64,000 bases of DNA from Corallococcus sp. AB011P (GCF_003611605.1 NZ_RAVX01000011.1:68811-132810), one strand, 5' to 3'; shown: positions 2,458 through 39,514, counted from the first letter of the stretch. Made by a program: numbers and translations. The notes: generated by a model not told the origin, from the sequence alone.

Positions 2458-3310
2458 CAGCGCCTCCGAGCGAACTCCAGGTGGTGCCGGAAGTCCGCGA
2501 TGCCCGAGAACCGCCGCCCGGGCTTGAGGATGTCGGGCGTCTGGAACGGCTCGCCGCCCAGCAGCGCGTACTCCCGCAGGCGGGCGTTCATGAAGGCCGC
2601 GTCCCCGTACTTCGCCCCGAGCAGGGCCGCGCTGCGGCGGACCATCCGCTCGCGCACGGGGCTCTCCTCCCGGGTGACGGTGTAGTGGTGCACCAGCGCG
2701 GCGGGCGCCACCCGGATGGACAGCCCGGACGCCCTCGCTCGCCACGACAGGTCCACGTCCTCGCAGTACATGAAGAAGCGCTCGTCGAAGCCACCCACCC
2801 GCGCGTGCAGCTTCTTCGTCATCAGCAGCACGCAGCCGCTGCACCAGGGCGTCTCACCCGTCGACGGATGGTACGGCTTGGGGTGCTCGTCCGGGAACAG
2901 CCGGGCCTCCACCAGCCCCGTGTCCGCCCGCTGATCCGCCTCCCGCGCCAGCTCCCGCACGCAGTCCGGATGCAGCAGCCCGTCCGGGTTCACGCAGACG
3001 TAGTACCGCGCCCCGCCCGAGCCGAAGGCCTCCGCCATCATCCGGTTGTGCGCGGCCCCGAAGCCCAGGTTCCTCCCGGCGTGCCGGTAGTCCGCGTCCG
3101 CGTCCAGCCGCGCCACCCGCGCGCGCAGCGTGTCGTCCGGCGAGTTGTCCAGCCAGACGACCCGGAACGCGGGCGCACCCGGGGCCTCGCGGTTCCACCG
3201 GAGCGACTCCCACAGCCGCTCCAGCTCCCGCTCCGGGTTCCGGTAAAGCACGATGCCCAGCCAGATGCCCGGCCCCCCCCCGTTCGCCGAAGCAGGGCCG
3301 CTCACGATCC
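2454..3310 (-). CDS. Glycosyltransferase family 2 (rhamnosyltransferase-like), O-antigen/polysaccharide biosynthesis
   Basis: GT2 hallmarks are present (VVWLDNSPDD, YYVCVNPDG, CEDVDLSWRA). The ORF lists an ATG at 3419 but it overlaps wzt. A GTG near 3308 (VSGPAS...) is the more plausible start. Confidence 0.7.
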
Positions 3311-4612
3311 GACGTCTCGCACTGGCGCCACGCGAGCCGCGGCGCCCTCCACGATCCACCGGTGAGGAGGCCGCGTCACGCCTCCGTCCTGCACGCTGGA
3401 GCGCACCTCGAAGGTGCACGCCTCCTCACGCTTCTCCCGCACCTGCCCCGCCCGGTCGCGCACCACCACCGTGAACGCGTAGCGCCCCGCGGTGAGGCCC
3501 AGCCGGTCCACCACGAAGCGCACCGTCCCGCTGCCGGCCGCCGCCGCGCAGAAGGGCACGTCCTCCGCGAACGTGTCCGTGGCGTGAACCAGCACCCCGT
3601 CCGCCCGGGTGAGCTCCAGCCCCAGGCCCAGCTCCGGCGCGGGCGTGCGCGCGGTGTACGCCACGCTCAGCTCCAGGCCGTCCTCCGTGTCCACGCACTC
3701 CACCGCCCCGCCGTCCCGGCCCCGCAGCCGCACCGCGTCCACGGTGAGCGGGGACGGTTCGCCCTGGGACGCCGCCAGCGACGGCAGCGCACCGCCGTCC
3801 GACGCCAGCGCGGGCGACTCCATGGACATGCCGCGCTCCTCCGCCAGCGCCACCGCGCGGCGGTAGCTGCGGATGACGTCCGCGGGCGGGCCGAACTCGC
3901 GGATGCGCCCGGCGTCGATCCACGCGCCCAGGTCGCACCAGCGCTCCAGCGTCCCCAGGTCGTGGGTGACGATGACGATGGTCTTCCCGGCCCGCTTGAA
4001 CTCCGTCATCTTCGCCAGGCTCTTCTTGCCGAAGTGCTCGTCACCGACGGCGAGGATCTCGTCGATGATGAGGATGTCCGGGTCCACGTGCGTGGCCACG
4101 GAGAACGCCAGGCGCATGTACATGCCGCTGGAGTAGGTGCGCACCGGCTCGTCGATGAAGTCGCCCAGCTCGCTGAAGGCGATGATCTCATCCATGCGCG
4201 CCTTCACCTCCGCGCGCGACATCCCCAGGATGATGCCGTTGATGAGGATGTTCTCCCGGCCGGAGAAGTCCGGGTGGAAGCCCGCGCCCAGGTCCAACAG
4301 CGCGCTGATGCGCCCGTTGATGTCGATGGTGCCCGTGGTGGGCGTGTAGATGCCGGTGATGAGCTTGAGCAGCGTGCTCTTGCCGGAGCCGTTGCGCCCG
4401 ATGATGCCCACCGTCTTGCCGCGGGGCACCACCAGGTCAATGCCCCGGAGCGCTTCGATCATGGACCTGCCGTCCGTGTCGCGCTGGCCGCGAAGGAGGC
4501 GGATGAGCTCCGACTTGATGGTGGTGTACTCGCGCCGGATGGTGCTCTTCCGGAAGCGCTTCACCACGTTGCGGAGCACGATGGCGTCCGGAGACGCGAT
4601 GGCACTGGTCAT
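3302..4612 (-). CDS. wzt: Polysaccharide/O-antigen ABC transporter ATP-binding protein with C-terminal carbohydrate-binding extension
   Basis: It has Walker A GRNGSGKST, a signature YSSGMYMRLAF and Walker B ILIIDE, plus a roughly 190-aa C-terminal extension typical of Wzt. The true start is the ATG at 4610-4612 (MTSAIASP), which overlaps the wzm stop as ATGA. Confidence 0.85.
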   Translation of the reverse strand: MTSAIASPDAIVLRNVVKRFRKSTIRREYTTIKSELIRLLRGQRDTDGRSMIEALRGIDLVVPRGKTVGIIGRNGSGKSTLLKLITGIYTPTTGTIDINGRISALLDLGAGFHPDFSGRENILINGIILGMSRAEVKARMDEIIAFSELGDFIDEPVRTYSSGMYMRLAFSVATHVDPDILIIDEILAVGDEHFGKKSLAKMTEFKRAGKTIVIVTHDLGTLERWCDLGAWIDAGRIREFGPPADVIRSYRRAVALAEERGMSMESPALASDGGALPSLAASQGEPSPLTVDAVRLRGRDGGAVECVDTEDGLELSVAYTARTPAPELGLGLELTRADGVLVHATDTFAEDVPFCAAAAGSGTVRFVVDRLGLTAGRYAFTVVVRDRAGQVREKREEACTFEVRSSVQDGGVTRPPHRWIVEGAAARVAPVRDVGS

Positions 4613-5445
4613 ATGAACTCCGCGAAGTCCTCGCGGCGGCGCTCGAAGATGCCCGCCGCGATCCACAGCAGCGCCAGGGAAATGCCCAACCACATCAGGA
4701 GCGGGCCGGGCTGCGGCAGCTGGTGTTCGTAGAAGATGGCCTGGTAGGACGTCACCATCACCCCCATGGGGTTGAGCAGCACGACCGGCGCCCGGACCGC
4801 CTCTGGCAGCGAGTCCACCCGGTAGAACACCGGCGTGACGAAGAACCACATCGTCAGCAGGTTGGCGATGATCTGCTGCAGGTCCCGGAACGTCACGTTG
4901 AGCGCGGACACGATGTAGACGAGCGCCACCGTCATGCACAGCTGGGTGAGCATCACCACCGGGAAGGCCACCACGTGCCAGGTGGGCACGTAGCCCAGGA
5001 GCAGCCCCAGCGCCACCATCAGCGGCAGGGACAGCACGTAGTTGCACAGGTTGGTCACCACCACCGTGGCCGGCAGCACCTGCGCGGGGAAGCGCACCTT
5101 GGTGAGCAGGTCGCGCCGGTCACTGATGGCGCTGGCGCCGGTCCCCAGGGACGTGGCGAACCAGATCCATGGGAGCAACCCCACGAAGACGAAGAACGTG
5201 TACCCGGGGATGTTCTGCCGCATGTAGACGGTGAACAGCAGCGAGTAGACGCCCATCTGGAGCATCGGGTTGAGGAACGTCCAGAAGAAGCCGAGCACCG
5301 AGTTCCGGTACCGCGCCTTCAGCTCGCGCTGGGTCAGGCTGAGCAGGAGGCCCCGGTACAGGTAGAGCTCACGGAGGTTGCGAAGCATGCGGCGCCATCC
5401 ATACCTCAAGCCCCCGGAAGGTGTCAGGCACGGGACTCCAGCCAT
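4609..5445 (-). CDS. wzm: ABC-2 type polysaccharide/O-antigen exporter permease
   Basis: The protein is ABC-2 permease-like with six predicted TM segments (…YRNSVLGFFWTFLNPML…). An alternative start is MLRNL at 5390. Confidence 0.85.
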   Translation of the reverse strand: MAGVPCLTPSGGLRYGWRRMLRNLRELYLYRGLLLSLTQRELKARYRNSVLGFFWTFLNPMLQMGVYSLLFTVYMRQNIPGYTFFVFVGLLPWIWFATSLGTGASAISDRRDLLTKVRFPAQVLPATVVVTNLCNYVLSLPLMVALGLLLGYVPTWHVVAFPVVMLTQLCMTVALVYIVSALNVTFRDLQQIIANLLTMWFFVTPVFYRVDSLPEAVRAPVVLLNPMGVMVTSYQAIFYEHQLPQPGPLLMWLGISLALLWIAAGIFERRREDFAEFI

Positions 5446-5542: not shown

Positions 5543-5617
5543 TGGAGCGGGAAAAGGGATTTGAACCCTCGACCCTCGCCTTGGCAAGGCGATGCTCTAC
5601 CGCTGAGCTATTCCCGC
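5543..5617 (-). tRNA. tRNA-Gly (anticodon GCC), CCA encoded
   Basis: The reverse complement is GCGGGAATAGCTCAGCGGTAGAGCATCGCCTTGCCAAGGCGAGGGTCGAGGGTTCAAATCCCTTTTCCCGCTCCA. It folds as a cloverleaf with anticodon loop CTTGCCAAG. Confidence 0.9.
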
Positions 5618-5647: not shown

Positions 5648-5722
5648 TGGAGCGGGAAAAGGGATTTGAACCCTCGACCCTCGCCTTGGCAAGGCGATGC
5701 TCTACCGCTGAGCTATTCCCGC
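5648..5722 (-). tRNA. tRNA-Gly (anticodon GCC), identical second copy
   Basis: This is an identical 75-nt copy 105 bp upstream of the first, separated from it by a 30-bp spacer. Confidence 0.9.
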
Positions 5723-14547: not shown

Positions 14548-15261
14548 CTAACGGGACTTCTTCACCACGACCTTCTTCTTCGCGCCAGCACCCATCACGC
14601 GGGTAAGGGGCGCGCCGGCACTGCTCGCCTGCTCAGTGACTACCGGACGCGGAGGCTCCGGAGCCCGGGTCGTGGTCGCGGCGGGCGGCGGGGGCGGCGG
14701 CAGCGGCTTGGCCGACGGACGGGCCACGACGGTGGCCGGCGCCGACGCGGGCTGCGTGCGCGCGGGAGGCGGGGGCGGCGTCGGGGCGGCGCGCGGCGGG
14801 GCGGCCGGCGGCGTCGGAGGACGCGGCGGGGTGGCGCCCGGACGCACCGTGGGGCGCGTCACCGCCTGGGGGCGGGCCACGGCGGGGCGTTCGGACGGCA
14901 GCCGGCCCGGTTCCACGTCTCCCATGTCCACGCGGCCGCGGAAGCTGGCCCCGTCCACGATGATGACGCGGGGGGCGCGGATGTCGCCCACCATGCGGCC
15001 CTCGCGGGTGAGTTCCACGCTCTCCGTGGCGTTGATGTTGCCCACCACCACGCCGCTGACGATGGCGTTTCGCACCGCCACGTTGGCCTTCACCACGCCG
15101 GACGGCTCCACGATGAGGGTGCGGCTGAGGGTGAGCTCACCCTCGACGCGCCCGCGGACCGTGAGGTCCTCGTCACCCGTGAGCCGACCGCTGATGAGGA
15201 TGGAAGGCCCCACCACGGTGTTGTCGACGGAGTTGCCTGCAAGATCCTTCGCGGTCGCCAC
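14548..15261 (-). CDS. bacP: Bactofilin with long Pro-rich C-terminal tail
   Basis: It has a DUF583/bactofilin beta-helical core and a roughly 110-aa Pro/Ala tail. Confidence 0.8.
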
Positions 15262-27521: not shown

Positions 27522-29234
27522 CTAGCAGTCCACCGGGCCTTTCAGGCTGGTAACGGTCGCTTCGATTTCTTCACACCCTCCCAGGGTTTTCGCCCCGTGG
27601 GCCGCCAGCTTGATGCCCAGCACGTCCCCCACCACCACGTCCGCCATGGAGCGCACCACGACGCCGTCCCGCTGGCGGAACGTCACCGCGTAGCCGCGAG
27701 ACATCACCTTCAGGGGGCTCAGGGCGTCCAGGCGGCCCCCCAACCGTCCGAAGTGCGTCTGCGCGGAGGCCAACATGCCCCGCTGCAGCTCCAGGAGCCG
27801 CGAGCGCGCCTGGGCCACCTTCGCCCGCTCGGCCGCCACCCGCGCCGTGGGGGATTGCCGCTCCAGCCCCAGCCGCGCGTCCGCCAGCGCGCCCCGCCGC
27901 CGGGTGACTCCCGCGCGCGCCGCCTCCGACAGGCGCATGGCCAGCTTGAGCAGGTGCGCCCGCTGCTCCGACAACCGCGTCTGGGGCCGCGCCCGCTGCA
28001 GCCGCTCCTGAAGGGCGCGCAGCGTCTCCCGGTGCTCGCGCGTGCGGGGGCGCAGCACGCGCATCATCGCCTCCACCTGTTCGGACAGGTGCAGGCGCTG
28101 GTGGTTCACCTCGCGGCGAGGGTCCGGCAGCCGCGCGCGAAGCTGGCCCTGGCGCCCGCGCAGCTCCAGCACCCGCCGCTCCATGGCCCGGCGCAGCCGG
28201 CCAGACTGCGTGGCCAGCGTCAGCTCCAGGTCGGCGAGAACCGGGGCCAGCCGCTCCGCCGCCGCGCTGGGCGTGGGCGCGCGCAGGTCCGCGACGAAGT
28301 CCGAGATGGTGAAGTCGATTTCGTGGCCGATGGCGGACACCACCGGCACCGGCGAGGCGAAGATGGCGCGCGCCACCCGCTCCTCGTTGAACGTCCAGAG
28401 GTCCTCCACGGAGCCTCCGCCGCGCGTCACGACGATGACGTCCACGTCGGTGCGCGAAAGCCGCTCGATGGCCCGCGCCACGTCCTCCGCGGCGCCCTCG
28501 CCCTGCACGCGCGCGTCCGCCAGCAGCACGCCCAGCCGGGGGTTGCGCGAGTGCAGCACGCGCAGGAAGTCCTGGAGCGCCGCGCCGGTGCGGCTGGTGA
28601 CGACGCCGATGCGCCGGGGCAGGAACGGCACGGGCCGGGGCGGCCGCACGCGCCGGTCGCCAATGAGCCCCTCCGCCGCCAGCCGCTGCTTGAGCTGCTC
28701 GAACGCGAGCGCCAGCGCACCCTCGCCCACCGGCTCCAGCCGGGACACGATGAGGCTGTAGCGGCCCTGCGGCTCGTACAGGTCCACGCTGCCCTCGGCC
28801 ACCACCTCCATGCCGTCGCGCAGCGCGAAGCGGATCCGCCCCGCCATGGACGCCCACACCTTCGCGTCGATGGAGGCGTCCGCGTCCTTGAGCGTGAAGT
28901 ACCAGTGGCCGCGCGCGTTGGCGCCGCGGAAGCTGGACACCTCGCCGCGCACCAGCACGCGCGGGAAGCGCGACTCCACCGTCTGCTTGATCTGCCGGGT
29001 GAGCTCGCCCACCGACAACACCGTGCGCTCCGGGCGCGGCGGCGGGGTGACGGCGGCCGGGGGCGGCGGAGCGACTTCGGCCGCCGGCGCGGTGGGCGGG
29101 GCCGCGGGCGGCTTGCCTCCACTGGCGGCCTTCGCCGGCGCGGGACGCAAGGGGGGGAGCAGCGACGTGCCGAACAGGTCGCCCTGCCCCGGCGTCTCGG
29201 CCGGGGGCGGCTCCAGCCCCTTGCGCTTCTTCAT
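27522..29234 (-). CDS. xseA: Exodeoxyribonuclease VII large subunit with Pro-rich N-terminal extension
   Basis: It has an OB-fold plus the XseA catalytic domain. The start is the ATG at 29232-29234 (MKKRKG), which overlaps the upstream stop as ATGA. The 725-aa track ORF over-extends. Confidence 0.85.
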   Translation of the reverse strand: MKKRKGLEPPPAETPGQGDLFGTSLLPPLRPAPAKAASGGKPPAAPPTAPAAEVAPPPPAAVTPPPRPERTVLSVGELTRQIKQTVESRFPRVLVRGEVSSFRGANARGHWYFTLKDADASIDAKVWASMAGRIRFALRDGMEVVAEGSVDLYEPQGRYSLIVSRLEPVGEGALALAFEQLKQRLAAEGLIGDRRVRPPRPVPFLPRRIGVVTSRTGAALQDFLRVLHSRNPRLGVLLADARVQGEGAAEDVARAIERLSRTDVDVIVVTRGGGSVEDLWTFNEERVARAIFASPVPVVSAIGHEIDFTISDFVADLRAPTPSAAAERLAPVLADLELTLATQSGRLRRAMERRVLELRGRQGQLRARLPDPRREVNHQRLHLSEQVEAMMRVLRPRTREHRETLRALQERLQRARPQTRLSEQRAHLLKLAMRLSEAARAGVTRRRGALADARLGLERQSPTARVAAERAKVAQARSRLLELQRGMLASAQTHFGRLGGRLDALSPLKVMSRGYAVTFRQRDGVVVRSMADVVVGDVLGIKLAAHGAKTLGGCEEIEATVTSLKGPVDC

Positions 29235-30979
29235 CGCGACAGCTTCTCGACCCAGCCCTGGGCCTTGCCGTGCAGCTCGTCGTCGGGCGGCGTCATCGCG
29301 ACGACGTCGCGGAACTTGGGCAGCGCGTCCTCCGGGCTGGAGTCCTTGATGGAGTAGGCCTGCATGTACAGGTCCTTCGCCTTGGCCTTGAGGTCGTTGA
29401 CGATGTTGGCGGCGCCCGTGTGGCTGGGGTCCGCCTGGAGCGCGCGGCGGGCGAACTCCATGGCGCGCGACCACTGGCCGGCGGCCTTCGCGCCCGCGGC
29501 GCTCTTGTAATAGATGTTCCCCGCGCGGGTGCCCGCGTTGCGCGCCATCTTGCTCGTGCGCCCGTCGGTGATGTCCTTGTCCAGCGCGAGCAGGCGGGTG
29601 AGGCCCTTGGCGTCCAGGTCCTCCAGCTTCTTGTAGAGGTTGCCGAACTCCGTCATCTGCCCCATCAGCTGCTTGCACTGGGGCGTCTTGGCCGAGCACG
29701 CGTTGAGGATGGCCACCGCGCCGGTGATGTCAGCGTCGCGGAAGCGGTCCACCGCGGGCTCCCACGGCTTGGGCACCGCGGCCACACGCACGGGGTCCGG
29801 ACGCGTCAGGTCCGCGATGACGCGCACGGCGTCGTCGTTGACGAGCTTGCCGTCGCGGTGCTCGGGGAAGGTCGCGAGCACGTCGTCGGTGATGGCCTTG
29901 GCCTTCTGCACGTTCTCCAGCTGGCGGGAGTCCAGCAGCCCCTTGGCCTCCTTCGTGCGCTTGTCGGCGGCGTCCGTCAGGTTCCTGCGCGCCGTCTTCA
30001 GCTGCTCGTAGAGCTGGGTGTCGCTGGTCACCTTCTCGATGGACGCCTTCGCGCTGGCCAGCTCGCCCTTGTCCAGCGCCGCCTGGGCCGTGCCCAGGTG
30101 GTTCTGGTTGGGGATCTCCCGCTCCGCGGCCTTCAGGTAGTCCGCCACGCCGGGGTAGTCCGGCGCCTGGGCGTGGAGCTCCTCCAGCTTCGCCTTGGCC
30201 TGCTGCCACTGGCCCTCGCGCACCAGGTTCTTGGCATCCTGGAAGAGGCCGCCCAGCTGCTCGCGGTAGTTGCGCTGCTCCGCCTCGATGCGGCCCTGCT
30301 CCTCCGCCTGTTGCCGCATGCGCGAGCGCACGACGCCCAGGCCCGCGAAGAGCACCACCAGCACGGCGACGCCCGCGAGCTTCATCCGCATGCGCTTGCG
30401 CTGCGCCTCCGGAGTGAGCTCCGCGGCGGCAGCGGCGCGCGACGTCTGCGGGCGCGCGCGGCCCTCCCGGGCGGGACGCGGGGGCACGGCCGTGGGACCG
30501 CGGCCCGCCGCCGTGGACGGACGGGGCCGGGGGCCGGTGGGGGCCTGCACCTTCGCGGTGCTGTTGGCGGTGTCCTCGTAGCGCAGCTCCGAGTCACCCA
30601 GCGTGATGACGTCGCCGTTGGCGAGGAGCGTCTCCTCGGAGATGGGCTCGCCGTTGACGATGGTTCCGTTGCCGGAGCCCATGTCACTGACCATCCAGCC
30701 GGCGGACTCCTTGCGCAGCGTCACGTGCTTGCGCGAGACGGACGTGTCCTGGATGCAGATGGGGTTGTCGGTGGCGCGGCCGACCGTGTACTCGAGCTCG
30801 GAGAGCGCGAACTCCTCGCCCTCCATGGGGCCGGCGACGACGACGAGCTTCGCGGGGCGGGCCGCGGCGGCACCGGCGGTCGACCGGCGGACCGGCGCGC
30901 GCGAACCAGTCCCCGAGGAGGGCGTACCGGATGTAGGCCGTCGGCGGGCGGGGGGAGGTGCGTTCGACATGGAGGTCAC
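29231..30979 (-). CDS. FHA-domain protein with one TM segment and C-terminal TPR-like helical domain
   Basis: The N-terminus has FHA motifs (GRATDNPICIQDTSVSRKHV...GSGNGTIVNG). A TM segment KLAGVAVLVVLFAGLGVV is followed by a roughly 350-aa helical domain. Confidence 0.7.
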   Translation of the reverse strand: MTSMSNAPPPARRRPTSGTPSSGTGSRAPVRRSTAGAAAARPAKLVVVAGPMEGEEFALSELEYTVGRATDNPICIQDTSVSRKHVTLRKESAGWMVSDMGSGNGTIVNGEPISEETLLANGDVITLGDSELRYEDTANSTAKVQAPTGPRPRPSTAAGRGPTAVPPRPAREGRARPQTSRAAAAAELTPEAQRKRMRMKLAGVAVLVVLFAGLGVVRSRMRQQAEEQGRIEAEQRNYREQLGGLFQDAKNLVREGQWQQAKAKLEELHAQAPDYPGVADYLKAAEREIPNQNHLGTAQAALDKGELASAKASIEKVTSDTQLYEQLKTARRNLTDAADKRTKEAKGLLDSRQLENVQKAKAITDDVLATFPEHRDGKLVNDDAVRVIADLTRPDPVRVAAVPKPWEPAVDRFRDADITGAVAILNACSAKTPQCKQLMGQMTEFGNLYKKLEDLDAKGLTRLLALDKDITDGRTSKMARNAGTRAGNIYYKSAAGAKAAGQWSRAMEFARRALQADPSHTGAANIVNDLKAKAKDLYMQAYSIKDSSPEDALPKFRDVVAMTPPDDELHGKAQGWVEKLSR

Positions 30980-31006
30980 CGCGTCCTGCTGAGGGGGGCA
31001 CGGGCC

Positions 31007-34000
31007 CTAAAGCTCGTGCTCATAGGCTTTTTCCTGCGCGAGATTGTGGCAGCGATGCTCGGCCGTAGGGAAGCGTCTCCGTACGTCTTCCAGGGTCGCG
31101 ACCGCATCCCGTCGGCTGCGGAACTGAACCGCCCGCTGGAACTGCATCATCAGCTGGCTGCAGCGGTGGTCCAGCTCCGTTGAAATCTGGGCGATCCGCT
31201 CCCGGACGTCCTCGTAAAGCTCCGGCTTTTCGTCCAGCGCTTCCAGGGTGATCCACGCGGCGCGGTACTCCCGCCACGCCTTGAACAGGTTCTCCGCGCC
31301 CACGTCCTTGAGCTCGTAGAAGCGGGCCCCCGCCTTCGCGGCCTCCCGGGCGGAGGAGACCAGCTGATCCGGCGGCAGCTCCGGCACCGGGATGACCTCC
31401 AGCCGCAGGTTCCAGATGCGCCACGGGTCGCGGCCGGGCGGGTTGAGGGCGTTGTCGAAGAGGAGCTGGTTGTTGGCGTTGCGCCGCAGGAGGCTGGGCG
31501 GGAGGACCTGCTCCAGCTCGCGCTCGGCCGTCTGCGCAGTGTCCGGGGGCACCCAGCCCAGGGATACGCCGTTGAGGGACAGGTTGACCTCGTCCCGGGC
31601 GATGCCGCTGGCCTGGTAGTGCAGCACCGCCACCGCGCGCGTGGGGGACACGAAGCGGAAGTCGAAGAGCTTGTCGTCGGCGTGGACCCAGCGCACACCG
31701 TCGCCCAGGCCGAAGGAGTCCGTCACCGGCTCCATGCCCAGCTTGAAGGGTTCGCGGCCCGGGAGCCGGATGGCCGTGGGGGCCGCGAGCGCTACGAGCA
31801 GCGTCACCACGCCCAGCATGGCCACGACCGCCAGCGACGCGAAGCCGATGCGCTTGGGCAGCGACTGGCGCTGCCAGAAGAGGAGGAACCGGCCCTGGAG
31901 CGACTTGCCCAGCTGACGCCGCTTGCGGGCCTTGTCGGCGGCGGACGAGGGCTCGACCTTCGCGACGACCGTCACCGGGCCGTTGGGCACGGGCTGGGCG
32001 ACGGAGTCCTCCAGGTCGGCGGGCACGGGCAGGGTGGCGTCACCCTCCACGTCCGGAGCGGGTACGCGGGCCAGTGGGGATTCGCCCGGCGGCGGGCCGG
32101 GGGGGATCCAGGCCGGAGGAGGCGCCACGGCCGGTGCGGCGGGCCCGGGCGCGACCTGGCCCGTGAAGGTCCCCGAGGCCCGAGTCTCCTCGGGGGCCGC
32201 GGAGAAATCATCGTCCTGGCCGACGAAGGTCGAGGGCTCGCTGGAGTCGATCGCGGCGGCGGGCGCGCTCACGACGCGGACCGGCGGGGCCACGAGCGGA
32301 CTGACCGGGGTGATGGGCCGGAGTTCGAGGAGCGTCCGCTCCTCGGGCTCCTCCATCGCCGGCGGAGGCAGCGCGGGCGAGGCCTCCTGCTGCGGCGGCG
32401 CCACTTCCAGGGGCGGCGCTTCCGGGGCCGCCGGAATCGCCATCAGCGTGCGCTCCTCGGGCTCGTCCAGCTCCGGGAAGGGCAGCACGGGAGGCGGCAC
32501 GGCGGCGGGATTGGGCGAGCCCACCGTGGAGATCGCCATCAGCGTGCGCTCCTCGGGCTCGTCCAGCTCCGGGAAGGGCAGCACGGGAGGCGGCGCGGCG
32601 GCGGGATTGGGCGAGCCCACCGTGGAGATCGCCATCAGCGTGCGCTCCTCGGGCTCGTCCAGCTCCGGGAAGGGCAGCACGGGAGGCGGCGCGGCGGCGG
32701 GCTCGGGTGCGGCCGCCGTGGGAATCGCCATCAGCGTGCGCTCCTCGGGTTCGTCCGGCACCATGGGGGCCAAGCCCACGGGAGGCGGTGCGACGGAAGG
32801 CCGTGCTGGAGGCGGCGGAGCCATCAGCCCCGGCGGCGACATCAACGGCAGGCCGGGCGCGGAAGCCGCGGCCCCCCGGGCCGCCGGAGCAGTGGACGCG
32901 CGCGCGGCGCCAAGCCCCAGCGAGGGACGGTTCAGCGCGGGCGCACCGACACCGGGCAGGTTCGCGACGGCGTGCCGCTTCGCGGGAGCCGCTGGTTCAA
33001 CGGGAACTGCCGCGACCTTCTCCGGAGCGGAGGCCGCCGTCGGGGCAGGAGTTCCGGCCGCGGGAAGCTCGATCGCCGTGGGGTGCGAGGGCGCCGGGGC
33101 AGCCTCCGGCGCGGACGACCGGCCCGGTCCCGAGGCACCGACCGCTGACAGTCCCGGCCCGGAGGCCCGGACGGAGGCGGAAGCGCCCGAAGCCTTGTTC
33201 GCCGCCGAGGCGCTCAGCACCGGGGGGCCAGCAGGAGCCTTGGCCGGAGCACCCGGCGCCGAAGGCCCCGACACGGGAGGTGCGGCGGGAACCTTGCCCG
33301 AAGCAGCGGACGCGGAGGCTCCCAGCACAGGAGGCCCGGCGGGAACCTTGCCCGAAGCAGCGGACGCGGAGGCCCCCAGCACAGGAGGCCCGGCGGGAAC
33401 CTTGCCCGAAGCAGCGGACGCGGAGGCCCCCAGCACTGGAGGTCCGGCGGGAACCTTGCCCGAAGCAGCGGACGCGGAGGCACCCAGCACTGGAGGCCCG
33501 GCGGGAGGCTTGAGCGAAGTCGCCGCACCCGGCGCGGAGGCCCCCAGCACAGGAGGCCCCGGAGGAGTCCGGACCGGTGCAGCCGCGCCTGGCACCGAGG
33601 CACTGACCGCAGGAAGATCCGGAGCGGAGGGCCGCTTCGGTGTAGCGGCCGCGGGCAGCGGCATCGCCGGGGTCGCCCCACCCTTCGCGGCGGGCACGGC
33701 CATTCCCGGGCGCGGTAGGGATGCAGGCCGGGCCATGGCCGGCATCGACTGCTGGTAGCTCGTGGGCGCCGCTTCGATCTCCGCGAGCGAGGCCTGCTCC
33801 ACGCCCTGCGGCGACACCCTCGCGTGGGGCGGCGCGAGCACCCGCCGGATGGGCCGGGTGACGTCGTTGTCATCCTCCGGCGGCACCCACACGAAGGTGA
33901 ACTCCACCGGCCCCACGGTGATGCGGTCGCCGTCGCGCAGCTGCTTCTCGCCGCCCAGCGGCTGGCCGTTCAGCTGCGTGCCGTTCGCGCTGCCAACGTC

Positions 34001-34105
34001 CTCCGCGAAGTAGCGCCCATCCCTGGCCGTGATGCGGGCATGACGCCGGGAGACACCGTGGTCATGCAGCACCAGGTCGTTCTCCGAGGTCCGGCCGATC
34101 TTCAC
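31007..34105 (-). CDS. Giant FHA-domain protein (1032 aa): FHA, long Pro/Ala-rich repeat linker, TM, C-terminal globular domain
   Basis: The N-terminus is an FHA domain (GRTSENDLVLHDHGVSRRHARI...GSANGTQLNG). It is followed by 18-aa repeats (x4) and 32-aa repeats (about x4), then a TM segment FASLAVVAMLGVVTLLVALAA and a roughly 270-aa C-terminal domain. Confidence 0.7.
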   Translation of the reverse strand: MKIGRTSENDLVLHDHGVSRRHARITARDGRYFAEDVGSANGTQLNGQPLGGEKQLRDGDRITVGPVEFTFVWVPPEDDNDVTRPIRRVLAPPHARVSPQGVEQASLAEIEAAPTSYQQSMPAMARPASLPRPGMAVPAAKGGATPAMPLPAAATPKRPSAPDLPAVSASVPGAAAPVRTPPGPPVLGASAPGAATSLKPPAGPPVLGASASAASGKVPAGPPVLGASASAASGKVPAGPPVLGASASAASGKVPAGPPVLGASASAASGKVPAAPPVSGPSAPGAPAKAPAGPPVLSASAANKASGASASVRASGPGLSAVGASGPGRSSAPEAAPAPSHPTAIELPAAGTPAPTAASAPEKVAAVPVEPAAPAKRHAVANLPGVGAPALNRPSLGLGAARASTAPAARGAAASAPGLPLMSPPGLMAPPPPARPSVAPPPVGLAPMVPDEPEERTLMAIPTAAAPEPAAAPPPVLPFPELDEPEERTLMAISTVGSPNPAAAPPPVLPFPELDEPEERTLMAISTVGSPNPAAVPPPVLPFPELDEPEERTLMAIPAAPEAPPLEVAPPQQEASPALPPPAMEEPEERTLLELRPITPVSPLVAPPVRVVSAPAAAIDSSEPSTFVGQDDDFSAAPEETRASGTFTGQVAPGPAAPAVAPPPAWIPPGPPPGESPLARVPAPDVEGDATLPVPADLEDSVAQPVPNGPVTVVAKVEPSSAADKARKRRQLGKSLQGRFLLFWQRQSLPKRIGFASLAVVAMLGVVTLLVALAAPTAIRLPGREPFKLGMEPVTDSFGLGDGVRWVHADDKLFDFRFVSPTRAVAVLHYQASGIARDEVNLSLNGVSLGWVPPDTAQTAERELEQVLPPSLLRRNANNQLLFDNALNPPGRDPWRIWNLRLEVIPVPELPPDQLVSSAREAAKAGARFYELKDVGAENLFKAWREYRAAWITLEALDEKPELYEDVRERIAQISTELDHRCSQLMMQFQRAVQFRSRRDAVATLEDVRRRFPTAEHRCHNLAQEKAYEHEL
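32330..32790. repeat. 96-bp tandem repeats (three near-perfect copies plus degenerate flanking copies) encoding PVLPFPELDEPEERTLMAI... units
   Basis: The unit atcgccatcagcgtgcgctcctcgggctcgtccagctccgggaagggcagcacgggaggcggc... starts at 32436, 32532, 32628 and 32724. Confidence 0.8.
33291..33510. repeat. Four tandem 54-bp repeats encoding (GKVPAGPPVLGASASAAS)x4
   Basis: The unit accttgcccgaagcagcggacgcggaggcccccagcacaggaggcccggcggga recurs at 33291, 33345, 33399 and 33453. Confidence 0.8.
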
Positions 34106-34178
34106 TTCGGCCTGCTCGAAGGCGAGCTCCCGTCCAACCTGGAGCCCCTGGGTGATGGTGAGCAGGATGGGCAGAGGA

Positions 34179-35069
34179 CTAGCCCCCGACGTTGCCGAAC
34201 ATGAACTGGAACACGATGGGCCCGAAGAGCACCATGAACACCGTCGGGAAGATGCAGGCGATGAGCGGGAAGAGCATCTTCACCGGTGCCTCGCCCGCCA
34301 GCTTCTCCGCGCGCTGCGTGCGGTCGATGCGCATCTGCGTGGACTGGATGCGCAGCACCTTGCCCAGGCTCGTGCCCATCTTGTCCGCCTGGATCAGCGC
34401 CGTGACGAACGTCGTCAGGGACGGCAGGTCCACACGCACGATCATGCTCTTGAGCCCCTCTTCACGCGTCTTGCCCATCTTGAGCTGCTTGAGCACCAGC
34501 TGCAGCTCTTCACGCAGCGGACCCTGGCGGCCCTTCTCCACCACCTTCGCCAGAGCACCCGTGAAGTCCATGCCCGCTTCCACCGACAGCGTCAGCAGGT
34601 CCAGGTTGTACGGAAGCGCGCGGCTGATGGCCAGGTGCCGGCGCTTCACCTGATCGTTCAACCAGATGAGCGGATAGAACAGGCCCAGCAGCATCACCAG
34701 CAGCGACCAGGCCAGGTTCGACCCGAGGCCGTTGACGACGAACAGGCCGACCAGCAGGCCGAAGAAGGCGCTGATCTCCTGCAGCGCCATGATGTCCTCG
34801 GGCTTGTACTGGGACGGCTCGCCCGCCTTGATCAGCTTGCGGCGCGTCTTGGACTCGTAGCCCGGCCACATGAAGCGCCGGTTCATCGCGCCCAGCTTGC
34901 GGATGGCGACGGAGCCCGCGCCCTTCATGCCGCCCGCGGACTCGTCGCGGACTTCCGTGAGGAAGCGCTCCAGGAGGTTGGAGTACAGGCCGATGCCCAG
35001 GAACGCCACCGCGCCCGCGGTCAGCAGTGCCGAGCCGCCCATCAGCAGAAATGTCAGGACTTCCTGCAC
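34179..35069 (-). CDS. tadC: Type II secretion system F family protein (TadC-like inner membrane platform)
   Basis: It has the GspF/T2SSF domain with three TM segments. Confidence 0.8.
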   Translation of the reverse strand: MQEVLTFLLMGGSALLTAGAVAFLGIGLYSNLLERFLTEVRDESAGGMKGAGSVAIRKLGAMNRRFMWPGYESKTRRKLIKAGEPSQYKPEDIMALQEISAFFGLLVGLFVVNGLGSNLAWSLLVMLLGLFYPLIWLNDQVKRRHLAISRALPYNLDLLTLSVEAGMDFTGALAKVVEKGRQGPLREELQLVLKQLKMGKTREEGLKSMIVRVDLPSLTTFVTALIQADKMGTSLGKVLRIQSTQMRIDRTQRAEKLAGEAPVKMLFPLIACIFPTVFMVLFGPIVFQFMFGNVGG

Positions 35070-35082
35070 GGTGCGCCTCGTT

Positions 35083-35928
35083 TCAGATGTCGATGTTGAC
35101 GATGCGCCGGATGATGAGGATGCCCATGATCTCCATGATGGCGATGATGGTCACCAGGATGTAGCCGAAGATGTGGTTCATCATCGGCTCCATCAGGTCC
35201 GGACGCATGTAGTTGAGCACCAGGCCGAGCACCGCCGGCATGGCCGCGACGATCCACCCTTGAAGCTTGCCCTGGGACGTCAGCGCGTCGATCTTGCCTT
35301 CCAGACGGAAGCGCTCGCGGATCACCGTGGAGATGGTCTCGAACATCTCCGCCATGTTGCCGCCCAGCTGGCGCGCGATGTTGGTGGACACCACCACCAG
35401 CTCCAGGTCGTCGCTGCCCACGCGGCGGCCCATGTTGATGAGCGCCTCCTCCAGCGGCACGCCCAGCTTCACTTCCTTCACGAAGAGGCCGAACTCCTGG
35501 GACAGGGGCGGCATCGCTTCGCGCGCCACGTGCTCGATGGCCTGGGGGAACGTGAGGCCCGCCTTGAACGCGTTGGCCATGGCCTGCAGCGCGTCCACCA
35601 ACTGCACGTTGAACTTCTTGATGCGGCGCTTGCGGTAGTGCTTCACGAGCAGCATCGGCAGGAAGAAGCCGAAGATGGTCGCGAGCACCGCCAGGATGGG
35701 GTTGAAGATGATGTAGCTGAGGATGCCCAGGAGGCACATGCAGGCGATGTTGAGGATCAACATCTGCCGCGGGTCGATGAAGAGGAACATGTCGCTCAAG
35801 TCGTTCATCGACTTGGCGACGTACCGCTCCTGGTACTGCTCATACGCCTTCGACAGGACGCTGAAGATCACCAGGCTGAAGAAGAACACCGAGCCGGTGA
35901 CGAGAAGGAGGACGATACCTGCGAGCAT
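35083..35928 (-). CDS. tadB: Type II secretion system F family protein (TadB-like inner membrane platform)
   Basis: It has a T2SSF domain and is the paralogous partner of the adjacent gene. Confidence 0.8.
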   Translation of the reverse strand: MLAGIVLLLVTGSVFFFSLVIFSVLSKAYEQYQERYVAKSMNDLSDMFLFIDPRQMLILNIACMCLLGILSYIIFNPILAVLATIFGFFLPMLLVKHYRKRRIKKFNVQLVDALQAMANAFKAGLTFPQAIEHVAREAMPPLSQEFGLFVKEVKLGVPLEEALINMGRRVGSDDLELVVVSTNIARQLGGNMAEMFETISTVIRERFRLEGKIDALTSQGKLQGWIVAAMPAVLGLVLNYMRPDLMEPMMNHIFGYILVTIIAIMEIMGILIIRRIVNIDI

Positions 35929-36006
35929 GGGCGCGAATCCCCGGGGGATGAGGGAGGGGTCGGCAGGGCCGCTTCAGCCTTGAACGAAGCGGCCCCGCGC
36001 GCGGAA

Positions 36007-36825
36007 CTACGGAGAGCCGGCCGAGGCCTTCTCGCCGCCGCCGCTGCCCTTGATGATCTGGATGATCTCCCGGCGCTTCTGCTCCAGCACGCGGGTGCGC
36101 TCACCGGAGAGCAGCGTGCTGATGGTGGCGCGGCCGCGTTCCTCGATGAGGTCCACGTCGTCCTCGTTGCGCAGGGACAGGGTCAGCTGCCCCAGCTCCG
36201 CCGCCAGCACCAGGATCTCCGCCTCTTCCGGCAGCACCATCAGCGAGACGTTGGAGTACTCGCGCTGGTTCTCCGGGATGAGGTTGATGTTCGTGGTGCC
36301 GGTGATCTTGCCCGTGGCGACCACGATGATGTTCTGCAGCAGCGTCACCGCGACGCTCTCGTCCGTCTGCGGATCGCGGAACGTGCCGATGATGTCCACG
36401 TGGTCGTTCGGGCGGATCCACCCGCCCACGGACGTGGTCTGCTTCGCCTCGATGGTGATGGCGCGCGCCTTCTTCTGCACCTTCGTGGACAGGCGCTCGG
36501 CGGCCTTCGTCGTCTCGAACTGGCTCCAGAGGATGGGGTCGCCGGCCTGCAGCGCCACCAGCACCTTCTGGTTCACGATGTAGTTGGCGGAGTCCGGCTT
36601 CACCACCGACGAGGTGACGAACTGCTCCGGCACGGAGCGCTGGGAGATCATCTCGTACGTGATGACCGAACCCTCGGGCATGTCCTGGCCCGCCACCACC
36701 ACGGGCACCAGGTTCCACCCGCGGCGCACATCCGATTCCTTCTTCTTGATGGCCGAGTAGGCCACGATGCCCGCGAGCAAACCGAGCACCAGTGCGACGA
36801 CGAGTGGGGTCTTACCCTTCAACAT
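36007..36825 (-). CDS. cpaB: Flp pilus assembly protein CpaB/RcpC
   Basis: It has an N-terminal TM segment followed by SAF/RcpC-like domains. Confidence 0.8.
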   Translation of the reverse strand: MLKGKTPLVVALVLGLLAGIVAYSAIKKKESDVRRGWNLVPVVVAGQDMPEGSVITYEMISQRSVPEQFVTSSVVKPDSANYIVNQKVLVALQAGDPILWSQFETTKAAERLSTKVQKKARAITIEAKQTTSVGGWIRPNDHVDIIGTFRDPQTDESVAVTLLQNIIVVATGKITGTTNINLIPENQREYSNVSLMVLPEEAEILVLAAELGQLTLSLRNEDDVDLIEERGRATISTLLSGERTRVLEQKRREIIQIIKGSGGGEKASAGSP

Positions 36826-37058
36826 GGTTCAAAGTCCTCCAGAACGGTGGGGCGCCGTCGTGGCGGCAGGACTGCTTTGGACGAGGGGGCAATGCCAGGG
36901 CGCGAACGAGGCAAGATGTTAGCCATGCCCCAGAGCAGGTGTCAAAACCACCTCTCGCGACAAAGCGGAATCCCGGGACCTCCGGAGCTCACGGAGCCTG
37001 CCCGCCCAAGGGGGAGGACGGCTCGACGCAGCGAGTTGATCCGCGGCCTTTGCGTCCC

Positions 37059-37361
37059 TCAGGGGAACGGCAGGTTCAGCACGAAGTAAAACGAGTCGTA
37101 ATAGATCTGGTACGCCTCGAGGAACAGGTCGATGACGTTGGTCTGCCGGTCGTCCGTCCAGCGGATCTTCACCGTGGCGCCGATGACGAGCCCGACGATC
37201 AACACCCAGTTGATCATCGAGTACTCCACCATGGCCTGGCCACGGCGGGCCCGGCGCGGGGAGCGCGGCGGTGACTTCCGGGGGCTGTTCACGGGGGGAG
37301 CGTGCACGTCCGACGTCATGTCCCCATTATCCAGGACCCGGGCCCCGGACGCATCGGTCAT
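37059..37361 (-). CDS. Flp/Tad-type pilin (class III signal peptide)
   Basis: It has the Flp motif G/QAMVEYSMINWVLIVGLVIG (G-x4-EY followed by a hydrophobic stretch). It has an unusually long leader of 27-41 aa depending on the start. Its GC content is locally lower, about 55%. Confidence 0.6.
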   Translation of the reverse strand: MTDASGARVLDNGDMTSDVHAPPVNSPRKSPPRSPRRARRGQAMVEYSMINWVLIVGLVIGATVKIRWTDDRQTNVIDLFLEAYQIYYDSFYFVLNLPFP

Positions 37362-37379: not shown

Positions 37380-38837
37380 CTACTGGGCGGGCTGGGAAGG
37401 GGCGGCCTTGGCCGGAGCAGACGCCGGAGCCGTGGGGGGCGCGGCCTGACGCAGGCGGCGCTGGGCCAGCTGCGCCGCGCTGGAGCCGGGGGCCTCCGTG
37501 AGGATCTGCCCGCAGACGGCGGCGGCCTCCTGGGTCCGGCCCTGGACGGACTCCGACTCGCAGAGCCGTGAGAGCAGGGCCACCCGCTCGCTGCCGCTGG
37601 CTCCGGCCGCGAGCGCGGCGCGCAGCAGCTGGGCCTCCCGGGCGCGGTCACCCTGGTTCGCGGCGGCCTGGGCCTGGGCGGACAGGTCGCGCGCCGTCAT
37701 CGCCTCCTTGGAGGCGGACTTCTCCATGGGCGCCGGCTTCGAGGCCTCCGCGCGGGCGGACTCCCGCTTGGGCATGGCGGTCGAAGGCGCCGGGGGCGTG
37801 GACGGAGGCGTCGCACCTCCGAGGGAGCCCACGGCGGAGGGGGCCATGGGCGCGGCCTGGACCACGGGCGCGGAGGCCACGGAAGGAGGCGGCGGAGGCG
37901 CACCCGCGGCGACGCTCTCGTCGTCGTCCGAGGCGAGCCCACGGCCATAGGCCGCCTCACCCAGCCGCAGGGAGGCGCCCGCCGAGCCCATGGCCTTGTC
38001 GCTGAGCTTGCCCGAGGAGCGCCGTCGCGCGGGTTCATCCTTCGCGACGTAGCCGTCGTTGGCCGCCTCTTCCTTCGGAGGCGCCTCCGGCATGACCGCC
38101 CCGGCCGTCGCCTGCTCGAGCGCGGCGAACTCGCCGTCCGCGTCCCGGACGGCCTTGGACATCTTCTTCTTGGGAGCCTCGGCGTCCGCGCGGCGCTCCA
38201 GCAGCGCGCCACCGCTGCCCGCGTTCATCCAGTCCGACGGACGGGCCGCGGCGGTGCCCTTGCGCTGCACCTTGGCCTCCACCTGGTTCTTCTGGAGCTC
38301 CATCTCGCTCGGCGCGGCCGCCAGTGCGTCCGAGGCACCTTCGGGCACGTCCACTTCGAGGGTCGCGCTCGAAGGCGCGGGGGCCATCGCGGCCGGGGCG
38401 CGCTTGTCCCGCGTCTGCGATTCCTGCTTCGCCGCCAACATCGGGCTGGGGGCCTCCCGCTGCGACAGGTTTGGCGCCAGATCGATGTTCTCGCTCACCG
38501 TCAACGTCAGGAGGCCGAAGGTACCCACCGTAGCCAGGCCCACCGCGGGCAGCAGGAAGCGGCGCCAGCGCGAGGGCTTCGGCTCGGGGCCGGCGGCGGC
38601 GCGGCGCGCGGACTGCTGCGCGTACGCGAGCAGCGACTCCAGGCCCGCGTCCGGCGCGGGCTCCGACGACAGCTGCGCCATGGTGGTGCGCACGCCGCGG
38701 ATGTCCGCCAGCGCCTTCGTGCAGCGCGCACAGCCCTGGACGTGCTGCTCCAGTGCGTGGGCCTCCGACGCGGGCAGCTCGCCGTAGGCGAAGTCGAGGA
38801 GCCGGTCCTCGTGCGCGTGGGCATTCTGGGCATTCAT
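37380..38837 (-). CDS. Zinc-finger anti-sigma factor with TM segment and large extracytoplasmic domain ending in a TPR-like segment
   Basis: The N-terminus has the ZAS motif HxxxCxxC (HVQGCARCTKAL). It has a single TM segment, and its start overlaps the ECF sigma stop as ATGA. Confidence 0.7.
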   Translation of the reverse strand: MNAQNAHAHEDRLLDFAYGELPASEAHALEQHVQGCARCTKALADIRGVRTTMAQLSSEPAPDAGLESLLAYAQQSARRAAAGPEPKPSRWRRFLLPAVGLATVGTFGLLTLTVSENIDLAPNLSQREAPSPMLAAKQESQTRDKRAPAAMAPAPSSATLEVDVPEGASDALAAAPSEMELQKNQVEAKVQRKGTAAARPSDWMNAGSGGALLERRADAEAPKKKMSKAVRDADGEFAALEQATAGAVMPEAPPKEEAANDGYVAKDEPARRRSSGKLSDKAMGSAGASLRLGEAAYGRGLASDDDESVAAGAPPPPPSVASAPVVQAAPMAPSAVGSLGGATPPSTPPAPSTAMPKRESARAEASKPAPMEKSASKEAMTARDLSAQAQAAANQGDRAREAQLLRAALAAGASGSERVALLSRLCESESVQGRTQEAAAVCGQILTEAPGSSAAQLAQRRLRQAAPPTAPASAPAKAAPSQPAQ

Positions 38838-39514
38838 CCCGCCACCGTCCTTCCATCCTCCGACAGGTCGCCGTCCACGCCCAGCTCACCCAGGCGGCGG
38901 CGCAGGCCCTCCAACGCGTAGCGCATGCGGCTCTTCACCGTGTTCTCGGACACGCCCGTCACCTCGGCGATCTCCTTGAACGGGATGCCGCTGTACTCGC
39001 GCAGCACGAACACCTCGCGCTGCTCCTCCGGCAGGGCCGACAGGGCCCGCTCCAACAGGGGCCGGAGGCGGGCGTTGTGCGCGCCCCGCTCCGGGCTGGC
39101 CCCGGCATCCGGCAGCCCCTCGCCCAGCGGACGTCCCTCGTCGCCGTCGGCACCCGCCGAGGGGGCTTCCAGGGACGTCGTCTGGCGGTAGCTCTCTTTG
39201 CGCGTGCTGTCCACGCAGAGGTTCCTCGCGATGGTGTACAGCCAGGTCGTGAACCGGGCCTTGGGCTCGTATTCCCGGGCGCTGCGGACCACCTTGAGCC
39301 AGGTCTCCTGCAGCACGTCCTCCGCCCGCGCCCTGTGGCCCACGAAGCGCAGGATGAAGTTGAACACCGGCGCGCGGTGCTTGCGCACCAACGCATCGAA
39401 CGCACGCGCGTTTCCCGCCTGGAAGGCGAGCATCAGCTGCTCGTCTGAGGTTTCGGGTGCCAAACTTCCCCCAGTGCCCATGAAGCCACGGGTGCCATCC
39501 CCTTCACCGCCCAA
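38834..39514 (-). CDS. ECF-family RNA polymerase sigma factor
   Basis: Sigma70 region 2 (FDALVRKHRAPVFNFILRFV...DVLQETWLKV) and region 4 are present. An alternative start is MGTGG at 39481. Confidence 0.8.
   Translation of the reverse strand: MGGEGDGTRGFMGTGGSLAPETSDEQLMLAFQAGNARAFDALVRKHRAPVFNFILRFVGHRARAEDVLQETWLKVVRSAREYEPKARFTTWLYTIARNLCVDSTRKESYRQTTSLEAPSAGADGDEGRPLGEGLPDAGASPERGAHNARLRPLLERALSALPEEQREVFVLREYSGIPFKEIAEVTGVSENTVKSRMRYALEGLRRRLGELGVDGDLSEDGRTVAG

Follow-up and report, generated by a model that had tools for sequence, protein, structure and literature searches.

A Corallococcus gene cluster that very probably corresponds to kil cluster II, the platform locus of the Myxococcus xanthus killing pilus

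The Kil system and its cluster II in Corallococcus

Few contact-dependent killing devices of bacterial predators have been described; one of them is the Kil pilus of Myxococcus xanthus, a Tad-like system that is encoded at two loci (Seef et al. 2021 eLife, PMC8460266). Cluster I (MXAN_3102-3108) provides the peptidase KilA, the secretin KilC, the FHA-fused ATPase KilF and the FHA/TPR protein KilD (PMC8460266). Cluster II (MXAN_4648-4661) contains, in the order given in Supplementary file 1 of the same study, an FHA and TPR protein (MXAN_4648), a PrgH-like FHA protein (4649), KilH (4650), KilG (4651), KilB (4652), two proteins listed as unknown (4653 and 4654), KilK (4655), two further proteins listed as unknown (4656 and 4657), KilL (4658), a TadG-like protein (4659), KilM (4660) and, as the last gene of the cluster, a zinc-finger protein (4661) (PMC8460266). 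Deletion of kilB, kilG or kilH abolishes prey lysis in M. xanthus, and KilG-NG clusters form where prey is contacted (PMC8460266). Here, we analyze a 64-kb stretch of DNA from Corallococcus sp. AB011P (NZ_RAVX01000011.1:68811-132810; hereafter the window), in which a Tad-like gene cluster is very probably the Corallococcus ortholog of kil cluster II and thus encodes a Kil pilus platform that is completed in trans. The Kil system, its split layout and its Corallococcus orthologs have already been published, and the window contains no new kind of machine.

A first-pass annotation of the window had interpreted six minus-strand open reading frames (ORFs) as the platform half of a split, Kil-like Tad system. 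All six ORFs are present where it had placed them (Table 1). Their CpaB, TadB, TadC and FHA domain content is borne out by Pfam and NCBIfam profiles, which were used for all domain calls, and the Flp pilin is borne out by its prepilin motif. The window was set in a comparison of 86 genome loci (labeled L001-L086), among which the contig of M. xanthus AM003 (L018) carries a cluster of exactly the 14 genes of MXAN_4648-4661. The window genes (FHA/TPR, FHA, kilH, kilG, kilB, kilK and zf-HC2) follow the order and orientation of MXAN_4648-4661. The encoded proteins are 57-96% identical to their L018 counterparts, with values of 96% for KilG, 92% for KilB, 83% for KilH, 71-78% for KilK, 61% for the FHA/TPR protein and 57% for the C-terminus of the other FHA protein. 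One flank matches MXAN_463x-464x and comprises three bactofilin genes (bacNOP), genes for an SgmT-like GAF/HisKA/receiver hybrid kinase and a TPR protein, dxs, an ispA-like polyprenyl synthase gene and xseAB; the neighborhood of bacNOP, sgmT and dxs had already been recognized in the first-pass annotation. The opposite edge is formed by the zf-HC2 anti-sigma factor gene. Given this gene-by-gene and neighbor-by-neighbor match to M. xanthus cluster II, the earlier Kil-like reading is correct.

The platform proteins are typical of Tad systems. KilB scores 190 bits against the CpaB model TIGR03177 (cut-off, 71 bits), and KilG and KilH each contain a single T2SSF domain, which is the TadB/TadC layout and not the two-domain layout of GspF/PilC. 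The window has a G+C content of ~71% and is ~95% identical at the DNA level to public Corallococcus assemblies, which show the same gene order and the same KilB protein, with an identical copy in several of them. A scan of a genome collection with KilG identified 80 loci at 75-99% identity, the best matches being Corallococcus species (98-99%), followed by Myxococcus and Pyxidicoccus (95-96%), Archangium and Cystobacter (~90%) and the most distant metagenome-assembled genomes (MAGs; ~75%). These matches place the window in the coralloides/exiguus group of Corallococcus. The cluster genes are intact and are not pseudogenes: the ORFs are unbroken and of ortholog-like length, and the ratios of nonsynonymous to synonymous substitution rates (dN/dS) against M. 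xanthus range from 0.07 to 0.49 (KilG, 0.07; KilB, 0.13; KilH, 0.27; KilK and both FHA proteins, ~0.48), indicating purifying selection.

What is the role of the single pilin gene in the window? In M. xanthus, the major pilin is KilP (mxan_5121), and KilK, an Flp protein with low expression, serves as the adapter through which Tip1, Tip2 and Tip4 are joined to the fibre (Herrou et al. 2025 Nat Commun, PMC12075869). The window pilin is 78% identical over 60 residues to M. xanthus KilK. Its sequence reads ...RRARRG/QAMVEYSMINWVLIVGLVIGA..., in which the Flp prepilin motif G/XXXXEY is followed by a hydrophobic helix, and its C-terminus, NVIDLFLEAYQIYYDSFYFVLNLPFP, is kept across genera. The product of the ORF matched no Pfam or NCBIfam model; in public annotations, the gene starts at 37319 and encodes 86 residues. 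By analogy with M. xanthus, the window pilin is the minor adapter KilK, and the major pilin KilP would be encoded elsewhere. The first-pass description of the locus as the platform and pilin half of the machine is thus upheld for the platform but not for the pilin in the sense of a major pilin, since KilK is a minor adapter.

The locus shares with the canonical Tad systems of Caulobacter (cpa) and Aggregatibacter (tad) a Flp prepilin with the G/XXXXEY motif, a CpaB/RcpC protein and two single-T2SSF proteins. It differs from them by lacking TadA/CpaF, RcpA/CpaC, TadV/CpaA, TadZ/CpaE and TadE/F/G (no TadE, TadF or TadG pseudopilin was found in the locus) and by adding two FHA transmembrane proteins and a pair of extracytoplasmic function (ECF) sigma and anti-sigma factors. 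Moreover, canonical Tad pili function in adhesion, whereas the M. xanthus ortholog of the window locus functions in prey killing. Bdellovibrio bacteriovorus and Bradymonas sediminis have Kil-like Tad systems that belong to the same clade of Tad systems from predatory bacteria, and their tad genes are located near FHA, TPR and other regulatory genes, but sequence identity is far lower, with published E-values of 1e-10 to 1e-45. The Bradymonas locus tags for CpaB, the secretin, the ATPase, KilG and KilH are consecutive (DN745_00680-00700; Supplementary file 2, PMC8460266) and therefore indicate one cluster, unlike the split Kil genes.

Table 1. Features of the kil locus and its surroundings, in window coordinates
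Feature	Position	Strand	Evidence
FHA-transmembrane-TPR-like protein, 582 amino acids (aa), ortholog of MXAN_4648	29231..30979	-	Pfam FHA, Yop-YscD_cpl, TPR
Large FHA protein, ~1055 aa, ortholog of MXAN_4649	31007..34174	-	Pfam FHA, Yop-YscD_cpl at N-terminus
96-bp tandem repeat x3.3 in FHA linker, 32-aa DEPEERTLM units	32436..32756		Tandem Repeats Finder, 95% matches
54-bp tandem repeat x6.5 in FHA linker, 18-aa PAGPPVLGASASAASGKV units	33203..33559		Tandem Repeats Finder and translation
kilH, TadC/CpaH-like platform protein, 296 aa	34179..35069	-	One T2SSF domain, four hydrophobic segments
kilG, TadB/CpaG-like platform protein, 281 aa	35083..35928	-	One T2SSF domain
kilB, CpaB/RcpC, 272 aa	36007..36825	-	Pfam SAF and RcpC; TIGR03177
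Sigma-70-like promoter TTGACA-18-TAACAT, ~90 nt upstream of kilB	36916..36945	-	Motif match, conservation
kilK, Flp-type minor/adapter prepilin, 100-aa ORF	37059..37361	-	RRG/QAMVEY motif, hydrophobic helix
zf-HC2 anti-sigma factor, 485 aa, ortholog of MXAN_4661	37380..38837	-	Pfam zf-HC2; weak NCBIfam anti-sigma matches
ECF sigma factor	38834..39514	-	Pfam Sigma70_r2 and r4_2; NF009166, 266 bits (cut-off 206)
ECF-type promoter-like motif AGACC-N17-CGTT, overlapping the DUF2085 stop codon	39522..39547	-	Cross-clade conservation

Split layout and a trimmed cluster

Neither a T2SSE/CpaF ATPase nor a secretin, a prepilin peptidase or a TadZ-like protein was found in the window, which was covered by Pfam scans of larger candidate ORFs outside the string, hand-picked by codon-position GC in a selection that is not exhaustive, and between 26 and 47 kb by the gene table of a 95%-identical public locus. 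No window protein scanned matched PF00437 or the secretin, peptidase_A24 or ParA/MinD-type models. At this coverage, the lack of a nearby ATPase, secretin and peptidase that the first-pass annotation had emphasized is confirmed. Furthermore, no T2SSE-type Walker A motif is located within 10 kb on either side of kilG in any of the 86 loci, and the split layout is therefore general in the family.

The missing half is recorded at a second locus in other Corallococcus genomes. The accessible part of Supplementary Data 1 of PMC12075869 lists gene indexes of hidden Markov model matches in complete genomes. For C. coralloides GCF_000255295.1, it places KilH/KilG/KilB at 4842-4844, KilD/KilF/KilC/KilA at 4932-4935 and KilP at 2355, and for GCF_004104415.1, it places KilH/KilG/KilB at 4609-4611 and cluster I at 4689-4692 (PMC12075869). 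Two more Corallococcus genomes in these data are alike, and cluster I is thus 78-90 gene indexes away from KilB/KilG/KilH in four complete genomes (PMC12075869). In contrast, the two clusters are ~1500 genes apart in M. xanthus (4528-4530 versus 3014-3017) in the same part of the data (PMC12075869). If the AB011P genome follows its relatives, cluster I would lie ~55-65 genes past the right end of the window. A non-canonical mode of energizing or gating, which had been offered in the first-pass annotation, is not needed, given that the ATPase, secretin and peptidase form a second locus in Corallococcus genomes. In sequence searches, the FHA/TPR protein retrieved orthologs only and no KilD paralog, a 235-aa fragment of M. 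xanthus KilF taken from the eLife supermatrix retrieved only short CpaF fragments of up to 412 aa, none of them from Corallococcus, and a 57-aa KilF-specific piece used as a query gave no match.

In the mechanism that we propose, KilG and KilH would constitute the inner-membrane platform, and the periplasmic CpaB-type protein KilB would link this platform to the KilC secretin. Cluster I (KilA, KilC, KilF and KilD), KilP and the tip minor-pilin clusters encoded elsewhere would complete the machine in trans. KilF would power the polymerization of KilP, producing a short pilus primed by a Tip complex and KilK, and the parts would assemble at the prey contact site, where the prey cell would die. 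According to recent literature, it is still unknown how prey contact triggers this assembly (PMC8460266), and a 2026 preprint says the same of its spatial determinants.

The window cluster agrees with M. xanthus cluster II in gene order, orientation, neighborhood and separation from the ATPase, secretin, peptidase and major pilin genes. It differs in gene content. In M. xanthus, the Tip4 genes (kilL4, kilN4 and kilM4; mxan_4658-4660) are located inside cluster II (PMC12075869). Corallococcus lacks kilL4, kilN4, kilM4, MXAN_4653, 4654, 4656 and 4657, and kilK stands alone between the anti-sigma factor gene and kilB. A tblastn search of the M. xanthus proteins from this interval against the window matched kilK only. 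A 42-aa tblastn match that had been considered as a remnant of MXAN_4654 was rejected, because it corresponds to the 3' end of kilK in another frame and the M. xanthus ORF itself overlaps kilK.

The interval varies by lineage. By tblastn, Myxococcus, Pyxidicoccus, Citreicoccus, Hyalangium and many deep MAGs carry the block KilM4-KilN4-KilL4-4657-4656-KilK-4654. When the loci with a rearranged block (L037-L042, L049 and L052-L060) were set against L018 and the window, the Tip4/kilK block was found to be inverted relative to kilB in Archangium, Cystobacter and Vitiosangium. The Tip4 block is absent from all Corallococcus loci, which keep kilK, and from a deep compact clade (L075-L086). Because the block is so widespread, its loss or relocation in Corallococcus is the simplest explanation, and because it is inverted or absent depending on the lineage, the interval between the anti-sigma factor gene and kilB is a rearrangement hot spot. 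The accessible part of the archive of Herrou et al. (PMC12075869) contains five COCOR tip triplets, none of which has locus tags near cluster II. By retaining the platform, KilK and both FHA proteins without Tip4 and four accessory genes, Corallococcus helps to sort the core genes of the system from the dispensable ones. Two records stand out by their labels. 'Corallococcus terminator BB12-2' (L031) exhibits a Myxococcus-type layout with Tip4, unlike strain CA054A (L030). A record labeled 'Comamonas sp. KCTC 72670' (BNCN01000007.1; L015) contains a Myxococcus-type cluster II, and its near-Myxococcus kil genes (KilK and KilM4 are each 96% identical to those of M. xanthus) suggest a mislabeled or contaminated assembly.

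Could the window instead encode a self-contained, non-canonical Tad-like machine that is energized or gated by orphan ATP-binding cassette (ABC) ATPases, MshEN proteins or the FHA proteins? Such a machine would agree with the absence of an ATPase, a secretin and a peptidase from 64 kb. Two ABC ATPase genes, a DUF2085 gene and the ECF/anti-sigma genes adjoin the cluster even in distant lineages, and two MshEN-only proteins pass the model of a motif that binds cyclic diguanylate (c-di-GMP). However, the M. xanthus orthologs depend on KilF and KilC, the ATPase and secretin of cluster I, the accessible part of the published data lists orthologs of cluster I for Corallococcus genomes (PMC12075869), and the ABC ATPases are DppD/F-type proteins with an oligo_HPY tail that are unrelated to pilus motors. 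A self-contained machine is thus highly improbable. It is also very unlikely that the locus encodes the platform of an ordinary Tad pilus for adhesion or surface sensing, in the style of Caulobacter or Aggregatibacter, and that Corallococcus does not use it in predation. All Tad systems have CpaB, TadB/TadC-like and Flp components, Corallococcus has no Tip4 at the locus, and the Kil role in the genus is assigned by homology; nonetheless, the 83-96% identity to M. xanthus Kil proteins, the synteny and the Kil-specific FHA and anti-sigma accessories point away from an ordinary pilus, as does a published phylogeny in which the clade is confined to predatory lineages. Corallococcus itself has been described as a predator.

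We give hardly any credence to a decaying remnant, in which the loss of Tip4 and accessory genes would be a step toward inactivation. Seven genes of the Myxococcus cluster (MXAN_4653, 4654 and 4656-4660) are missing here, and the large FHA gene is split into pieces in some public annotations (L003 and L004). However, the window ORFs are intact, the compact layout does not vary among the 19 Corallococcus loci, the dN/dS ratios are well below 1, and the promoter block upstream of kilB is conserved. Moreover, the broken FHA gene calls fall in a tandem-repeat region, where errors of assembly are likely. An orthologous cluster II that is completed in trans is the reading that we prefer. Several points weigh against it: the locus is not a full copy, as the seven M. 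xanthus cluster II genes are absent; the presence of cluster I in the AB011P genome is extrapolated from other Corallococcus genomes; Kil function in Corallococcus is assigned by homology with M. xanthus; and the roles proposed below for the FHA proteins, the promoter and the ECF pair derive from sequence features only. Residual interest lies in the compact layout without Tip4 and in the FHA and ECF accessories.

FHA proteins as candidates for a contact relay

Both FHA proteins are membrane proteins, in agreement with the first-pass annotation. Hydropathy analysis, which was used for all transmembrane assignments, identified a single hydrophobic segment in each, at residues 199-217 of the 582-aa FHA/TPR protein and near ORF residue 749 of the large FHA protein. 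The FHA/TPR protein has orthologs across Cystobacterineae with 48-95% identity. Its AlphaFold 2 model, based on a 30-sequence alignment, has a mean predicted local distance difference test (pLDDT) score of 79.5 and predicts an FHA domain (residues 44-135), a disordered segment (140-189), a long helix (190-254) and an all-alpha repeat domain (258-581). In Foldseek searches, the FHA domain was nearest to the phosphothreonine readers GarA/OdhI (41% identity) and also resembled Bdellovibrio DgcB, and the remainder of the protein resembled generic TPR proteins. The pocket residues GR, SxxH and NG are invariant in the 30 orthologs.

The large FHA protein consists of an FHA domain, a Pro/Ala-rich linker, a transmembrane segment and a conserved C-terminal domain. 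Its gene most likely starts not at 34105 but at a CTG codon at 34174, 5 nt past the kilH stop codon, because this start restores the conserved first FHA strands (PILLTITQGLQ.GREL), the first two of which would be lost with a start at the first canonical codon. In M. xanthus, the corresponding codon is GTG, and one public annotation adopts the CTG. MXAN_4649 orthologs range in length from 486 aa in M. xanthus through ~1055 aa here to 1397 aa in M. dinghuensis, and the extra length is due to the repeat-rich Pro/Ala linker, to which Corallococcus has added four or five DEPEERTLM repeats. The linker is the least conserved stretch, with blastn identity between strains decreasing to ~81-88% across window positions 32,088-33,583. 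The C-terminal ~250 residues are conserved in 61 loci and contain two invariant Cys residues, in keeping with a periplasmic location. A profile search of PDB sequences with this domain returned chance-level matches only (E-values of at least 0.57), and a single-sequence model with a pLDDT of 47 was not used.

What might the FHA domains recognize? Immediately after the FHA domain of the large protein, we found an acidic motif, D-x-(A/V)-T-R-P-I-R(R), which reads DVTRPIRR in the window (~33830-33860, minus strand) and occurs in one to three copies in 46 of the 67 loci. Many FHA domains prefer pT-x-x-I, and the T-x-x-I spacing of the motif suggests that it may be a phospho-acceptor site read by an FHA domain. 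The literature searched contained no description of this acidic motif and no role for MXAN_4648, 4649 or 4661 or for the ECF/anti-sigma pair. The first-pass annotation was thus right that the FHA pair and the zinc-finger gene have no described role, but they are not an unrecorded addition, being already listed in cluster II.

An FHA-based signaling cascade has been suggested for the Kil system (PMC8460266). Judging from their domain layout, the two FHA proteins may be transmembrane, phosphothreonine-dependent scaffolds or relays that recruit cytoplasmic Kil parts. The least understood members of the locus, namely the FHA proteins, with the conserved TRPIR motif, and the ECF and anti-sigma factors, are candidates for a prey-contact trigger of Kil assembly. 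As a tentative and rather doubtful extension, we suggest that the FHA pair might relay prey contact to the Kil machine, perhaps in concert with the ECF/anti-sigma pair. In such a relay, the periplasmic domains of the FHA proteins would either detect contact or bind KilB and KilC, a Ser/Thr kinase would phosphorylate the D-x-(A/V)-T-R-P-I-R motif beside the FHA domain of the MXAN_4649 ortholog, and the binding of FHA domains to phosphothreonine would cluster the platform and recruit the FHA-fused ATPase KilF. If this were true, the loss of Tip4 and the doubled repeat linker in Corallococcus would represent a re-tuning of the relay and of the prey range.

The arrangement of a cytoplasmic FHA domain, one transmembrane segment and a periplasmic domain is shared with Fha1/PpkA of the Pseudomonas aeruginosa type VI secretion system, SctD/YscD/PrgH of type III secretion systems and GltG of the M. 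xanthus gliding motor, a comparison drawn from the FHA-dependent control of secretion machines by threonine phosphorylation. The window FHA domains gave weak, sub-threshold NCBIfam matches to GltG, TagH and SctD, with the GltG model reaching a score of 51 against a cut-off of 650 for a window FHA protein. An assignment as SctD was rejected, as TIGR02500 matched the N-terminus only, at 18.8 and 28 bits against a cut-off of 86. In contrast to these secretion proteins, the window FHA domains keep the phosphothreonine-binding residues and resemble GarA/OdhI, and the periplasmic parts have a modeled all-alpha, TPR-like fold or an unknown fold without ring-building motifs.

Transcription of the cluster and neighboring genes

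The first-pass annotation described the gene string as continuing without a break, but kilK and kilB are separated by a 233-bp gap that contains a conserved sigma-70-like promoter match. This match is the only one in 13.5 kb, and shuffled sequences give 0.3. When the 250-nt regions preceding kilB were aligned for 22 sources, 20 of them, from Corallococcus to deep MAGs, proved to keep the block TTTGACAC-N17/18-TAACAT (or TACCAT/TAGCAT), with flanking DNA that cannot be aligned (the same block was seen in loci L008-L081). A CGAGAGGTGGT box just upstream of this block is conserved in Myxococcaceae. From kilB downstream through both FHA genes, the intergenic gaps measure 78, 13, 4 and 27 nt, and the final gene of the pair is in turn overlapped by xseA. 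Three weak matches to intrinsic terminators were detected in the string, compared with 4.9 expected by chance, and are uninformative. On the proposed reading, kilB, kilG, kilH and the two FHA genes would form a single unit driven by the conserved sigma-70-like promoter.

The pilin gene kilK appears to belong to a different unit. The ECF sigma factor gene is located directly upstream of the anti-sigma factor gene in all loci whose flank reaches that far; here, the two share 4 nt, and a further 18-60 nt separate them from kilK. The anti-sigma factor has one transmembrane segment (residues 94-112), and its gene keeps its position among the loci. Upstream of the ECF gene, a motif is kept across clades as TAGAyC-N16/17-CGTT and occurs once on this strand in the window. 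Sequences of this form resemble ECF-type promoters, and the motif may be an autoregulated ECF promoter. Direct control of the kil genes by the ECF sigma factor was considered and rejected, since the ECF-type motif is not repeated upstream of kilK or kilB. The only link with support is possible read-through into kilK. In this arrangement, kilK would be read with the ECF and anti-sigma genes, and the ECF pair would control at least kilK.

Upstream of the kil genes, the segment 39546-43759 (minus strand) contains two DppD/F-type ABC ATPase genes without a permease gene and the gene for a DUF2085 membrane protein. The ABC ATPase, DUF2085 and ECF/anti-sigma genes remain in place even in lineages whose KilG shows no more than 75% identity (L046, L064, L065 and L075-L086). 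Two MshEN-only proteins are encoded ahead of the ABC ATPase genes and score 65 and 60 bits against the model of the c-di-GMP-binding motif (cut-off, 38 bits). At positions 4480-4580 of L006, window position 14681 is joined to 42302 such that the 3' end of bacP lies directly on the second MshEN gene. The junction occurs via ~44 bp of G+C-rich microhomology and joins the end to the start of a 27.6-kb segment that carries the kil cluster. Such a junction could be an artifact of chimeric assembly at a low-complexity repeat, or it could have been left behind by a tandem duplication or a circle. Farther away, two tandem tRNA-Gly(GCC) genes (5543-5617 and 5648-5722, minus strand; 73.1 bits each) adjoin a Wzm/Wzt-like ABC-2 exporter pair (3302-5445) that accounts for a local dip in G+C content.

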